From Nitrospirota bacterium (GTDB lineage Bacteria; Nitrospirota; Thermodesulfovibrionia; Thermodesulfovibrionales; JdFR-85), in contig QIJG01000050.1 in NCBI GenBank assembly GCA_003232715.1, positions 1 to 55,258 on the forward strand: a stretch of DNA of 55,258 bases, read 5' to 3'. The stretch's first letter is position 1; each line of letters begins with the position of its first letter. A model generated the notes under the pieces. The model saw nothing but the letters and a program-made list of their open reading frames with translations, had not been told where the DNA came from and did no database searches. Below, one piece after another: positions 30,271-34,326 of this stretch. The position numbers and the translations under genes are program-made.

Positions 30271-33200
30271 TCAAAGTGTATTGCTTTGTGTGAAGCTGAA
30301 TGTGGCATTCCATTTCTTCTTCTCGGTTTTTTCACTGCTTTTTTGTGGTGACTTCAGGCTACCTTTATGATCAAGTTTGGCACTTTCTTCGATTATGAAA
30401 TCTTTTACTTCAACCTTTCCTGTAGCACCTTCTTTACTTTTATCAATCTCTTTGAAGCCGACAGGGGCATCCGTCTCCAAAATCAAGTTCACGGTAATGT
30501 TCGTGGGGATACGTGCTGCAACAGCAAGCTTTTTAGACTTGGCATCTTTTGAAAGCTCTTTGTGCAAGGCGGCTGCTTTTGTACCAAGCTGTCTTTGGGC
30601 GCTTTCTTTAGCCGTTTTTTCTTTGTTTGTTGTTTTAGGCATTTTTGAGATCTTTTTCCAATCATTCAAGAAAGCCCTTCCGGCAACGAGCTTCATAATA
30701 TTTTCAAGCGGACTTGTAACACTCCCTGGATAGTGTAACGATACATCTATAGACACTTTGGAGTTTTGATTCTTAGGCATTGTTTCTTTGCCTCCTCTTC
30801 CTATGCTTTTAAGATTCCTGCTGGTGAAGTTTTCCATTGTTTTATATATGCCCCGGTTTAATCCCCGGGCCTGAGGAACAAGATTTTTGAAGTTTTCAGG
30901 ACCTCCAAACCGATTAGCTATAATATGTCCTCCATCATATTTGCTTTTGTCGATGCTGACTCTGTTTTGGCGCATTGCGCTCTCTATATCTCCAAGCTTT
31001 CCCACAATGCCGGTAAGAGCACTGTCCCTCTCTATGTCTTTCGATAGGCCTTCTTCGATTTTCCCCTCAAGCTCTGCTTTAACATGGGATGGTCTTTCAG
31101 CATTGGCAGGCAACCTTACAATGGGAAATTTAAGGTTGGCATCATCAAGCTCGGATGCTACAGCGCCGTGTATCGTGGGATATATATCTCCACTTGCTGA
31201 GTAAGTACCGAGTTTTGTTGTTCCTCCAGAGGTCTTTCTAAACTTGCCGTTTTTTTCCGTTAATGCCAGTTCTTCAGGCTCTGCCTTGAAAGGCTTGCCT
31301 CTGATTACTTCACTCTCGGAATTTTTGATGACGACATCGTCATTCCTGTTCAGCACGATACTTTTTAATTTGAACTGTTTTTTTAGATTTAATAATAATT
31401 TTCTCAGGTCTGGTCTTCTTATCCCCCTCTTCATGGCCTGTCGGACTGCAGCTGCTGCCAATCGTTTGTTCTTCTTCCGTGTTGCGGTATTGCCCCGCTT
31501 ACTTTCCGTTACCTTTTTTCTGAATTTCCTGAACAGTGCCCTGGCCTTCTTCGCGATAAAATCGACGGCCTTGTCAATGACCTTGTCGATGGGCTTTCTT
31601 ATCTTCATGATTATCTTCTTGACTGCTTTGCCGATGCCGTTCAGGTTCAGCAGGCGGGCAAGGAAGTTCAGGATTATCGGTATGGTCATTGCCATGGCCC
31701 TTTCAACTGCAGCGGATGCCGCGCTGATCTTGCCCATGGCTATGTCCGCTATGGAGTTGAAGACGGTCTTGACGAACTGGACGATCTTGTTCCAGTTATC
31801 CACGAAGAACATGATGGTGTTGTAGATATCCAGGATTGCCTGCACGATCGCACCGGCAGGGTTCAGGAAACTGAGGAGCTTGATAACTCCCTGTTTTACC
31901 AGCTCTACGATGGCCCAGTTGCGGATGCCATCCATCACCTGTTGCTTGATCTCCGCGGCCTTTGCCTTTATCATCTCCCACAGTGCCATCGGTCCCTGAG
32001 TGACTATCTTCTTGATGATATCAAAGGTTTTTTCTGCTGCACCTACGACCTTCTCGCCGAGACGCTTCACCAGCTTGCGCCTGATATTGGCCCAGGTCAG
32101 TCCGAGGATCTGGAGCACTATGGAGATAATGCCTTTGAGGTTGAACTTCGGCGGGAGCTGGATGCCGATTTTACCCATGGCCCCTGTCAGCCAGCTGATG
32201 AGACCCCCCACAAGGTGCTTTCTAATGTTGTTTACGAAGCTGTTAATGCCTCCCTTTACGGCGTTTATGATGTTTATTATGAATCCTGCAGGGTTACCGA
32301 CTATTTTTTTGATTACGGCCTTGCCCTTGTTGATTATAGACATCAGGCGGTCGGCACTGTACCCGGCCTTTTTGAGCGCCCATTTGAAGAATTTCAAGGC
32401 AGCCTCGATGAGGAGATTGCCGAGCTTTGAGAGTGCACCTGACATCTCTTCCTTCATCTTCTCTATCTTTTCGTCGATCTTCTTGATCGCCTCTTCTTTC
32501 TTGTCGCAGAGCTTTCTTGCCAGTTCATCCTTCTTTCTGTCTATGAACTTGTCCATATCGTCCAGCCTGGACTTCATCTCCTCCATGGACTGCTGCCCGA
32601 TCTTCTTCAGGTCGGGTCCGAGGCTGTCAACATACTTCTTTATGTCCTTGCGCGCGGTAGCAATCTCTTCCCTGCAACCGGCGATTGCCTTTTCGTTCTC
32701 CTTGGTGATACGGGCAATCAGCTGGTCGATCTTTGTGACGTAATTCTTGCGGGCCCTCTCAAAGGCTGCTTTCACTTCCGGGAAATCATCGATCCCGAAG
32801 AGCTTGTCCTTTGCCCACCTGACCGAACCGAATAGCCCCGAGTACCGCTTGCGCTTCCACCTGTTTATGTCACGGTTGACTTCATATTCAAACTCACTGG
32901 ATGCCGTTGTCTGTCCCTGGTCAAAGGCTTTCAGGGATTGCTTCTCTAAATTGTTAAGCTTTACCGTTACGCTCTTCTTTGCACGTTCGTAAATCGAATT
33001 TATCTGTTTTGTTACCGCTTCCCTCCTGAGTTCCAGGGAGGACCTGGTTTTTTTCTGCTTATCCTTTGCACCGGCAAGTCCCTGGAGGCGTTTATTCCGC
33101 ATTTGACCTCTTGATTTTATTTCATCTTCCCGGAGGTCTTTATCGACGTTCATTGCCTGTTGCCGGGCAAAGTCTTGCAGTTTTTCAGGTTTGGTGTTGA

Positions 33201-34326
33201 CGTTTTTTTTTAATTTCTTCCGCTCCTGTTTTGCTTCGAGCAGTTCACCTTCGTCAACCATTTCAAGCTGTTCTTCCTTAAACCCTTCTTTTTCGAGGAG
33301 TTTGTCAGACTGCCTGTCGAATTCCGAGAAATCGGTGTGTTCCTTCTTCAGCGAAGGAACGGCATTTTTGCCAAGGTCAAGTTGAGGGGTCTCGGGAGCG
33401 ACTTCTTCAGGTGGGAGTTCAGACGGAGGTTTCCCGGGTTTCCTGGCCGGGGGAGGGGTCTCTATCTTCTTGTAAGTGTCCTGGACATTGTCTATATCCT
33501 TTTTTACCCTTCCGAGGACCTTGTTTCCAATAACCTTTGCCTTGCCTTTTGACCTGAACTGGTTCATCTCTTTTATCTTTACAGGTACCGAGCTATCGAT
33601 GGCATCGTTCAGGGTCTTTTTGGCCTCTTGTTCGCTCGGTTCCGGAGGTTTCTTTCCTTCAAGGTCCTCTACCTGAGCGGCATTGCTTTGTGCCTGTCCC
33701 TCTTCAGCCGGAGGCTCAACAGCCTTTTCAGCCTGCCCGGTCTTTTCTTCGGCATTGTCGTGGGTCTGTTCGTTGTCAGCAAGTACTGCTGCCTTGGCGG
33801 CGGCCCTGGAACAGACGTTGGCGCTCTTCTGCTTCAGGTATTTTCCTGCTTTACCTTTCGGTTCCTCTCCTCCGGCTCCGGGGCTTATTCCTTGTGCACT
33901 GACCTTTCCCTTCTTTTCAACGCCTTTCTTGCCTTTCTTTTTTCCTTTCCCTCCTTTTTCTCCCGGGGCTTCCTCAACAGCTCCAGGCTCTTTTCCGGGG
34001 GCCTTCTCTGCGGCCAGTCTCTGCAAAGTGTATGGCAGGGTCATTACCTTTTCAGAGGTCCTGTCTGTTTCCTGCTCAAGTGGGTCGTTTGCCTTACTAA
34101 CGGTTATGCCTGTTTGAGCTTTTGCTTTTAGCGCCGGGGTGCAGGGTCTGCCTGAACCAGGGTATCCCCTGGTTCCCTGGAGATCTGCATTATTGACGAG
34201 CCTGCAAAGGGCCTCAGCGTCATGACCGTTTGACTTGCGCTGCAAGGTCAGGCTGCCTTTCTCCGGCACACTTTGACTGTTGTTCAGGGTTGCAGACTGT
34301 TTGTCGGCAGATGTTGCGTAGTTCAT
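30271..34326 (-). CDS. Putative CIS cargo/effector, 1351 aa, with C-terminal His-Me (EssD/YeeF, Endonuclease_NS_2-like) nuclease motif
   Basis: Last gene of the CIS operon, 12 nt after the ATPase gene. N-terminal LQRK...NDPLEQETDRTSEKVM leader, a Lys/Glu-rich coiled-coil region and an amphipathic/hydrophobic helical region (GLISWLTGAMGKIGIQLPP...). The nuclease-like motif is KYDGGHIIANRFGGPENFKNLVPQARGLNRGIYKTMENF (nt about 30820-30940). Confidence 0.65.
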   Translation of the reverse strand: MNYATSADKQSATLNNSQSVPEKGSLTLQRKSNGHDAEALCRLVNNADLQGTRGYPGSGRPCTPALKAKAQTGITVSKANDPLEQETDRTSEKVMTLPYTLQRLAAEKAPGKEPGAVEEAPGEKGGKGKKKGKKGVEKKGKVSAQGISPGAGGEEPKGKAGKYLKQKSANVCSRAAAKAAVLADNEQTHDNAEEKTGQAEKAVEPPAEEGQAQSNAAQVEDLEGKKPPEPSEQEAKKTLNDAIDSSVPVKIKEMNQFRSKGKAKVIGNKVLGRVKKDIDNVQDTYKKIETPPPARKPGKPPSELPPEEVAPETPQLDLGKNAVPSLKKEHTDFSEFDRQSDKLLEKEGFKEEQLEMVDEGELLEAKQERKKLKKNVNTKPEKLQDFARQQAMNVDKDLREDEIKSRGQMRNKRLQGLAGAKDKQKKTRSSLELRREAVTKQINSIYERAKKSVTVKLNNLEKQSLKAFDQGQTTASSEFEYEVNRDINRWKRKRYSGLFGSVRWAKDKLFGIDDFPEVKAAFERARKNYVTKIDQLIARITKENEKAIAGCREEIATARKDIKKYVDSLGPDLKKIGQQSMEEMKSRLDDMDKFIDRKKDELARKLCDKKEEAIKKIDEKIEKMKEEMSGALSKLGNLLIEAALKFFKWALKKAGYSADRLMSIINKGKAVIKKIVGNPAGFIINIINAVKGGINSFVNNIRKHLVGGLISWLTGAMGKIGIQLPPKFNLKGIISIVLQILGLTWANIRRKLVKRLGEKVVGAAEKTFDIIKKIVTQGPMALWEMIKAKAAEIKQQVMDGIRNWAIVELVKQGVIKLLSFLNPAGAIVQAILDIYNTIMFFVDNWNKIVQFVKTVFNSIADIAMGKISAASAAVERAMAMTIPIILNFLARLLNLNGIGKAVKKIIMKIRKPIDKVIDKAVDFIAKKARALFRKFRKKVTESKRGNTATRKKNKRLAAAAVRQAMKRGIRRPDLRKLLLNLKKQFKLKSIVLNRNDDVVIKNSESEVIRGKPFKAEPEELALTEKNGKFRKTSGGTTKLGTYSASGDIYPTIHGAVASELDDANLKFPIVRLPANAERPSHVKAELEGKIEEGLSKDIERDSALTGIVGKLGDIESAMRQNRVSIDKSKYDGGHIIANRFGGPENFKNLVPQARGLNRGIYKTMENFTSRNLKSIGRGGKETMPKNQNSKVSIDVSLHYPGSVTSPLENIMKLVAGRAFLNDWKKISKMPKTTNKEKTAKESAQRQLGTKAAALHKELSKDAKSKKLAVAARIPTNITVNLILETDAPVGFKEIDKSKEGATGKVEVKDFIIEESAKLDHKGSLKSPQKSSEKTEKKKWNATFSFTQSNTL

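Follow-up and report, generated by a model that had tools for sequence, protein, structure and literature searches.

We analysed 55,258 nucleotides (nt) of DNA from a Nitrospirota bacterium (GenBank assembly GCA_003232715.1, contig QIJG01000050.1, positions 1 to 55,258 of the forward strand; this whole stretch is called the window below), with attention to a gene on the minus strand at 30271..34326 that encodes a protein of 1351 amino acids (aa). The gene is the last one in a complete extracellular contractile injection system (eCIS) operon, all of whose genes lie on the same strand, and its product is probably a nuclease that serves as a loaded cargo of this system. By its sequence relationships, the protein is a derived member of a polymorphic family of eCIS cargo with the layout DUF4157, long carrier and C-terminal toxin. 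Its unusual feature is a clean in-frame loss of DUF4157 in which the leader motif of that domain has been kept.

In the list of open reading frames (ORFs), the toxin gene has an ATG start and a stop codon at 30271-30273, and 12 nt separate its start from the stop of the preceding AAA ATPase gene. The operon comprises genes for a Pvc16_N cap (53301-53879), a sheath (50228-52174), two gp19 tube proteins, CIS_tube, VgrG (46669-48417; 582 aa), a minimal PAAR protein (46297-46575; 92 aa), gp25, Baseplate_J, two large proteins of 849 and 914 aa (candidates for a baseplate or fibre role), CIS_TMP and the AAA ATPase (34339-35718; PF00004, E=1.4e-27), which is presumed to be the cargo loader; all of these coordinates refer to the minus strand. 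An original prediction, made from the DNA letters alone, had proposed a modular cargo toxin encoded by the terminal gene of this operon; the ORF and its place at the operon end were verified, and protein family scans of VgrG and PAAR bore out the statement that neither carries a toxin extension. The toxin is the largest ORF of the eCIS cluster (next largest: 1016 aa), and a search of its full sequence against NCBIfam gave no match.

A full-length search returned 53 homologues of 945-1895 aa; what they have in common with the query is the carrier region, about 58% of its length. About 40 of the 53 carry DUF4157 (PF13699), and most are annotated as DUF4157 or as "eCIS core domain-containing". 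All relatives for which a locus was fetched come from eCIS gene clusters: P0002, P0003, P0018 and P0037 stand directly after the AAA ATPase gene (a position seen in five loci, L001, L002, L003 and L006 among them), and P0033 (L007) stands second after it, behind a DUF4157 cargo gene. The C-termini are polymorphic, with 14 similarity clusters among 48 C-terminal toxin modules (CTDs). PF13930, Tox-REase-7 and HHH_3 were seen among the first full-length matches, Ntox21, "Bacterial toxin 4" (PF15541), GH-E, PF13930 and PF10354 are carried by short or partial relatives, and Pfam searches with eight other CTDs of the family returned no families. The homologues, their eCIS loci and their variable C-termini thus bear out the predicted modular cargo. 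Use of a four-sequence CTD alignment as query for related loci yielded two loci.

The N-terminal leader (aa 1-107; 34006..34326, minus strand) is hydrophilic, with a summed Kyte-Doolittle value of -38.6 over its first 35 aa and one aromatic residue among the first eight; it contains LQRK and the DPLEQETDRTSEKVM motif and is presumed, by analogy with AlgoCIS, to be the loading signal. A hydrophilic N-terminus and a position at the operon's 3' end are features described for eCIS toxins (PMC11297309), and the 1351-aa protein has both. The leader aligns to aa 1-107 of P0002 and to aa 1-97 of P0003, the nearest relatives (83% and 79% identity, respectively, over 59-63% of the length), both of which carry PF13699. 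After their first ~100 aa, these two relatives continue with acidic QRQ/EEEEP repeats and a canonical DUF4157 domain (HELAHTIQQ) before the sequence of the query resumes, and in blastn toxin aa ~107 joins aa 383 of P0002 and aa 318 of P0003. Judged from these alignments, the toxin has lost ~220-275 aa relative to P0002 and P0003, exactly in frame, and the lost segment consists of the acidic repeats and the HExxH domain; blastn joins and protein alignment against P0002 and P0003 place the deletion junction at ~aa 105-110 (33997..34014, minus strand). PF13699 gave no match to the 1351-aa protein at E<1, and the protein, whose leader holds LQRK and PLEQETDRTSEKVM, is free of HExxH. The deletion of the peptidase explains what had originally been noticed as a DUF4157-type leader without HExxH.

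A total of 31 DUF4157-bearing homologues have in common the motif D-x-(Y/L)-E-x-E-(A/T)-D-x-x-(A/S)-x-x-V. The toxin retains it as part of a fuller form, Q-x-K-L-x-x-G-x-x-x-D-x-(Y/L)-E-x-E-A-D-x-x-A-x-x-V, and is the only one of the DUF4157-less homologues to do so. In P0082 and P0084, which have several copies of DUF4157, the leader motif lies ~130-300 aa upstream of HExxH, also at the internal copies checked; because the motif precedes HExxH in these multi-copy proteins, leader motif and peptidase appear to form one extended DUF4157 module, in which the motif could be a pro-segment or a site of cleavage or recognition. The form G-x-x-x-D-x-Y-E-x-E-A-D-x-x-A-x-x-V is found at aa 87 and 1487 of P0082 and at aa 51, 2133 and 3310 of P0084, and P0084 has one further HExxH, at aa 1769, with no leader motif upstream.

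The DUF4157-less form of the toxin was found in five independent Nitrospirota assemblies of metagenome-assembled genomes (MAGs), one of them with accession HEC96902.1. Other metagenome assemblies of Nitrospirota supplied P0001, which is identical to the toxin, and four further members with 95-100% identity. One of the five, P0057 (95% identical, 1386 aa), is likewise without DUF4157 and has a different in-frame boundary: compared with window positions 33997-34050, it keeps ~35 aa (SLEAELAAS...) that the toxin has lost, and therefore either two independent deletions or two stepwise in-frame deletions took place. The P0057 CTD is 93% identical to that of the toxin, has no stop codons and leaves H1134, N1148, N1157 and E1165 unchanged. 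The presence of the gene in five independent assemblies and the intact CTD of P0057 argue against a pseudogene or an artefact.

A search of the six-frame translation of the 55-kb window was performed with a DUF4157 hidden Markov model (HMM; built from 39 family domains; positive control: 40 of 53 family members matched), and it gave nothing better than E=1.2. P0037 and P0033, relatives that are also DUF4157-less, each adjoin a second large cargo gene that bears DUF4157, and no partner gene of this kind is present in the window. The arrangement of a DUF4157-less carrier toxin beside a DUF4157 cargo gene (L006 13931-17857; L007 4749-9500) fits the published "DUF4157 in trans" adjacency. The DUF4157 toxin criterion asks for DUF4157/PF13699 with HExxH either in the protein itself or in a gene no more than two positions away (Geller 2021; Danov 2024), and the definition of proteins like Tme, the tape-measure-related effector (BN159_7576) of a contractile injection system (CIS) in Streptomyces davawensis (PMC11126660), asks for relative ORF length, an N-terminal DUF4157 and conserved synteny (Nagakubo 2024). 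Because DUF4157 is absent, the toxin falls outside both definitions; by its alignments it nevertheless clearly derives by descent from the DUF4157 toxin family.

The exchangeable C-terminal toxin module (aa 936-1351; 30274..31521, minus strand) was delimited through a homology break, GC content at third codon positions (GC3), homologous CTDs and AlphaFold2 (AF2) modelling. Within it lies a predicted His-Me finger nuclease core (aa 1125-1178; 30793..30954, minus strand), identified through PF13930, alignment to EssD, CTD conservation and AF2. The motif KYDGGHIIANRFGGPENFKNLVPQARGLNRGIYKTMENF, originally read as an EssD/YeeF-type His-Me nuclease signature, passed the profile search: PF13930 (Endonuclea_NS_2) matches aa 1125-1173 with E=1.8e-11 and 44.8 bits (gathering score: 27 bits). 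The only sequence relative of the CTD in the PDB is Staphylococcus aureus EssD (8guo_B), with E=0.014 for the single sequence and E=0.0015 for a profile of 18 CTD homologues; His1134 aligns with an EssD histidine whose position is occupied by alanine in the deposited variant PDB 8gun. From the alignment we propose His1134, Asn1148 and/or Asn1157, and Glu1165 as catalytic residues, in keeping with the PF13930 pattern of a catalytic His in GGH, an Asn as metal ligand and an acidic residue on the helix that follows. Across 18 aligned CTDs, no variation occurs at G1142, N1148, P1151, E1165 and Y1199, and at least 90% keep G1133 and H1134.

An exhaustive HMMER search with aa 950-1351 gave 71 representatives, 28 of them below 1e-10, and nearly all strong matches are the C-termini of 1000-1900-aa proteins with DUF4157 and/or the same carrier. 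About 25 other proteins end in the same type of CTD, nearly all with DUF4157 or the carrier region, whereas small generic PF13930 proteins share only the ~50-aa core. A ~170-aa region before the nuclease core and a ~140-aa C-terminal extension after it are both confined to eCIS-family proteins. Structure prediction of the C-terminal end, which had been suggested as a check, was carried out with AF2 (predicted local distance difference test, pLDDT: 77.8; predicted template modelling score, pTM: 0.67). In CTD numbering the model has a strand at 181-185, a strand at 200-204 and a helix at 209-228, so that the GGH strand, the NLVPQ strand and the long helix with E1165 form a strand-strand-helix unit (181-228 overall) within a larger sheet that reaches the C-terminus.

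Comparison with the syntenic locus L001 (GCA_015491675.1), in which eCIS genes and the AAA ATPase are followed by toxin P0003, ChrB_C, a major facilitator superfamily (MFS) gene, genes for proteins of 191 and 186 aa, and a glycyl-radical enzyme, bears on the origin of the CTD. In blastn the homology between window and L001 ends at window position 31526 (aa 933) and picks up again 11 nt upstream of the 191-aa gene's start codon, at 29984, and the variable unit is therefore the CTD together with the spacer behind it. This unit also differs in composition: the CTD (aa 934-1351) has a GC content of 0.42 and a GC3 of 0.41 (0.407) and the spacer (29973-30270; GC3 not applicable) a GC content of 0.40, compared with 0.47-0.55 (GC3: 0.55-0.76) in all other genes measured. 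Because homology breaks at aa 933 relative to L001 and GC3 drops there, cargo-module exchange, which the original prediction had raised, is supported, and on these sequence grounds the last ~415 aa of the toxin are a recently exchanged cassette. The accompanying remark that the whole gene is A/T-rich holds for these last ~415 aa and the spacer and fails for the rest of the gene, whose GC3 of 0.57-0.63 resembles that of neighbouring genes; Lys-richness, also taken as peculiar to this gene, turned out to be a property of the whole family.

The spacer (29973..30270, minus strand; 298 nt) is non-coding and belongs to the variable cassette; as predicted, the only one of the listed ORFs in it encodes 30 aa. 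A terminator scan of the spacer on the strand of the toxin gene found none, and by eye a weak GCGG-CTG-CCGC hairpin followed by TTTTT can be seen at ~30182-30197. In L001, whose toxin has a different nuclease CTD, the variable segment after the toxin (14647-16291) holds a 143-aa ChrB_C-domain protein and an MFS transporter, both absent from the window. Downstream of P0018 in L002 (7745-9620), which has the same CTD type as the window toxin, there are a 39-aa remnant of the toxin N-terminus and a 381-aa ORF that begins within the hydrophobic carrier region and runs into a different CTD, with a 127-aa ORF (called there as a 118-aa gene) behind it; this arrangement resembles an orphan toxin cassette that possibly brings along an immunity gene of its own.

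Between leader and CTD lies a carrier of ~830 aa, Lys/Glu-rich and helical in its first part and built of hydrophobic helices in its second, which is conserved across phyla. The Lys/Glu-rich part (aa 111-640; 32407..33996, minus strand; Lys 16.6%, Glu 11.5%) is probably coiled-coil, as judged from its composition and its conservation in the 53 homologues, and corresponds to the ~500-aa coiled-coil region of the original prediction. PHROG 167 (tape measure protein) matches aa 124-699 at E=2.2e-9, which agrees with the idea of a tape-measure-related effector, with the caveat that this region is compositionally biased and that coiled coils can give spurious matches; Pfam gave a weak Apolipoprotein match in the same part. 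The hydrophobic part (aa 641-935; 31522..32406, minus strand), foreseen as a ~330-aa amphipathic or hydrophobic helical region and delimited here by composition, conservation and AF2, is the most conserved part of the family; 53% of its residues are hydrophobic and three stretches exceed a Kyte-Doolittle value of 1.4. The AF2 model of this part is all alpha-helical (13 helices) at low confidence (mean pLDDT: 66.9), and Foldseek with this model returned generic helical proteins only (E >= 0.17), which leaves a pore-forming or translocation fold unsupported.

A delivery route can be proposed by analogy with characterised systems. A loading role for the AAA ATPase comes from Pvc15 and Alg15 (PMC11495950; bioRxiv 10.64898/2026.05.27.728243). 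For AlgoCIS, the eCIS of Algoriphagus, the latter reports that the AAA+ protein Alg15 mediates cargo loading and that loading into the tube lumen needs the disordered N-terminal domain of the cargo, with DUF4157 and the CTD dispensable; an earlier report describes Cgo1 and Cgo2 as filling the AlgoCIS tube and being released on contraction (PMC8894135). In the window system, the adjacent AAA ATPase would likewise recognise the disordered leader, unfold the toxin and thread it into the tube lumen, and contraction of the sheath would expel it into the target. The hydrophobic helices may aid crossing of the target membrane, the nuclease would then degrade target nucleic acid, and protection of the producer would not depend on an immunity protein encoded next to the toxin, which is the common situation among eCIS toxins.

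Several points weigh against this account of a loaded nuclease cargo. We infer all three of its steps, loading, injection and nuclease activity. The PF13930 match spans only profile positions 50-99 of 132, and in a Foldseek search with the whole CTD model the best PDB match was the DNase Sda1 (5fgw_B; E=0.07, probability 0.44), which is not significant; the fold evidence is therefore concordant with a nuclease and not independent proof of one. Insertion of the hydrophobic helices into a membrane is speculation on a low-confidence model with no fold match. The likeness to Tme and to the Cgo proteins rests on described architecture and not on sequence comparison, and the absence of a DUF4157 gene and of an immunity gene is a statement about the 55-kb window.

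The absence of an adjacent immunity gene, already stated in the original prediction, was borne out. Comparison of the spacer and of downstream ORFs across loci revealed no cognate immunity gene beside the toxin, none of the downstream ORFs is conserved across the four loci whose toxins end in this type of CTD (the window, L002, L004 and L005), and no immunity family was found among the window genes scanned (those from 8.2 kb upwards). Between ~8.2 and 24.8 kb the window encodes flagellar export and chemotaxis proteins and one lytic transglycosylase, with no immunity family. This absence had been called unusual for an active nuclease toxin, and here the published survey of eCIS shows the reverse: most validated eCIS toxins are "puzzlingly" without identifiable immunity genes, for which production of the toxin shortly before lysis of the producer has been offered as an explanation (Geller et al. 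2021, PMC8213781). Immunity goes unmentioned in the paper on Tme (PMC11126660). The missing immunity gene is thus real, yet typical of eCIS toxins.

The same absence bears on an alternative in which the molecule is as described and acts on the producer or its siblings, in programmed lysis or release of extracellular DNA, and not in the killing of foreign cells. A nuclease acting on its producer would be expected to have no immunity gene, and none lies next to the toxin or in the three other loci of the same CTD type; in S. davawensis, phenotypes in extracellular DNA and sporulation are explained by the endonuclease activity of Tme (PMC11126660), and Geller et al. suggested that eCIS toxins may contribute to lysis of the producer (PMC8213781). 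The operon, however, is laid out as a free eCIS, including the 849-aa and 914-aa baseplate or fibre candidates, and fast swapping of polymorphic CTDs typifies antagonism more than housekeeping. We regard such a role as improbable, though it is the strongest of the alternatives.

A decaying or disarmed toxin, in which the loss of DUF4157 and the missing immunity gene would mean that the protein is no longer loaded or active, appears less probable still. The family-defining domain is indeed deleted, and the L005 relative with the same CTD type has a CTD split into three ORFs. This relative comes from a metagenome assembly of a Bacteroidetes MAG, however, and the split could reflect assembly or sequencing errors. 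The 4-kb frame of the toxin is intact in five assemblies, the diverged P0057 CTD is uninterrupted and keeps the proposed catalytic residues, and the deletion is exactly in frame in the toxin and, at a different boundary, in P0057. In AlgoCIS, cargo loading is reported to remain possible after experimental deletion of DUF4157 (bioRxiv 10.64898/2026.05.27.728243). As for L005 itself, the toxin there (4290-9071) is divided into ORFs of 1297, 78 and 214 aa, with the split within the CTD, which may represent pseudogenisation or, again, errors of assembly or sequencing.

Directly downstream of the toxin, on the same strand, are two tandem paralogous genes (29397-29972 and 28767-29339, minus strand) for proteins of 190/191 aa without a Pfam or NCBIfam family. 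By their position as the next genes after the toxin and their lack of a family they could be taken for nearby immunity proteins, and to this we give almost no credence: they are 78-81% identical in L001, whose toxin bears an unrelated CTD and where ChrB_C and MFS genes sit between the toxin and their counterparts with the same glycyl-radical enzyme operon following, so that they are flank genes and not part of the cassette; their GC3 of 0.56-0.63 is host-like, unlike that of the CTD, a soluble nuclease is unlikely to be inhibited by polytopic membrane proteins, and no downstream ORF is conserved among the four loci with this CTD. They were therefore rejected as cognate immunity genes. By eye the two paralogues (28767-29972) are rich in hydrophobic stretches, suggesting membrane proteins; the pair precedes a glycyl-radical enzyme and its activase both in the window and in L001 (16472-17717), and may serve the glycyl-radical enzyme operon as an accessory or transporter pair that is so far uncharacterised.

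Three further genes of the window are recorded here. A 364-aa protein without a Pfam family is encoded directly after the short Pvc16_N cap (52203-53297, minus strand) and, judged by its position, could be the counterpart of the AlgoCIS cap adaptor Alg16B. The 849-aa baseplate protein (40132-42681, minus strand) includes, at aa 649-683, a DUF1508 segment. The flagellar export gene flhA (FHIPEP; 16125-18141, minus strand) is present as two ORFs instead of one, the first of 176 aa (17611-18141; profile positions 1-147) and the second of 488 aa (16125-17591; profile positions 165-656), with a frameshift, a pseudogene and an assembly error as possible causes of the split.

The toxin is of a known kind: the architecture of DUF4157, carrier and toxin, the polymorphism of the CTD and the missing immunity gene have all been published already, and the interest of this protein lies in what it has lost. 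DUF4157 is the most eCIS-specific domain known, and roles in loading, processing, chaperoning and self-immunity have all been proposed for it (PMC8213781, PMC11297309). An apparently functional cargo without DUF4157 supports the engineered result that this domain is dispensable for loading, and a 55-kb window with neither DUF4157 nor an immunity gene argues against DUF4157 as a device of self-protection. A bolder interpretation, which we put forward tentatively and think rather unlikely to hold in full, is that this lineage is a natural experiment in which an eCIS works with no DUF4157 peptidase at all; it is suggested because the only cargo keeps just the motif that precedes DUF4157 and because the in-frame loss of the peptidase has different boundaries in two sister lineages. 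If this were true, recognition for loading would depend on the leader motif as the conserved determinant, and not on DUF4157 or on mere disorder, and DUF4157 could be neither the proposed self-immunity device nor the proposed chaperone. Independently of that interpretation, the analysis defines an uncharacterised, predicted nuclease module of ~400 aa specific to the eCIS family, and this module, together with the exchange of cassettes at a precise junction, could serve the engineering of eCIS payloads.

Among known systems, Tme is one of the closest. Tme co-purified with the spike and tube-initiator proteins of its CIS, and substitution of a histidine by alanine abolishes its toxicity (PMC11126660). 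Like the toxin, it is encoded by the largest ORF in its CIS cluster and combines coiled-coil segments with hydrophobic helices. It ends in a His-Me endonuclease, with DRGH/H-N-N as its motif and a catalytic histidine needed for toxicity, and a His-Me core is likewise predicted at the C-terminus of the toxin. Tme is remotely similar to tape measure proteins of phages; in the toxin, PHROG 167 matches a compositionally biased region, where such a match may be spurious. Unlike the toxin, it retains an N-terminal DUF4157 and is encoded just upstream of the baseplate genes, whereas the toxin gene follows CIS_TMP and the AAA ATPase at the 3' end; that the toxin operon has its own CIS_TMP was also counted as a difference. 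The Tme nuclease is reported to be EndA-like, and that of the toxin matches PF13930 (EssD/YeeF type). A profile search toward actinobacterial relatives yielded proteins that are short or partial and have other toxin CTDs; Tme did not appear among them by name.

Cgo1 and Cgo2 of Algoriphagus AlgoCIS resemble the toxin in having an N-terminal region that is disordered and serves loading (presumed in the toxin), a long body and a CTD that varies, and Cgo2 (ALPR1_12690; 1228 aa) is similar in size to the toxin (1351 aa); the AlgoCIS operon likewise begins with a short Pvc16_N-type cap gene and encodes an AAA ATPase. Both Cgo proteins contain DUF4157, unlike the toxin, which is a natural equivalent of the engineered DUF4157 deletion that still loads. 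The homologue P0037, also 1228 aa in length, was considered as a match for Cgo2 and rejected, since it is without DUF4157 and comes from a JGI metagenome.

EssD (EsaD) and YeeF are nuclease toxins of type VII secretion (PF13930; PDB 8guo, 8gun) and share with the toxin the core D-G-G-H-(L/I)-I-A-x-x-F-G-G...N-L-V-x-Q...N-R, although the match to EssD covers only ~30-50 residues. They use another delivery machine, no LXG or WXG100 N-terminal domain was detected in the toxin, and, in contrast to EssD, no adjacent immunity gene is apparent at the toxin. Pne1 of the Pseudoalteromonas metamorphosis-associated contractile structures (MACs) is a nuclease toxin delivered by an eCIS (cited in PMC8213781), as is proposed for the toxin, and is reported to be without DUF4157 (bioRxiv 10.64898/2026.05.27.728243); we liken it to the toxin by description alone. 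Taken together, the toxin is functionally closest to Tme and to cargo of the Cgo type, and its catalytic core resembles that of EssD and YeeF.

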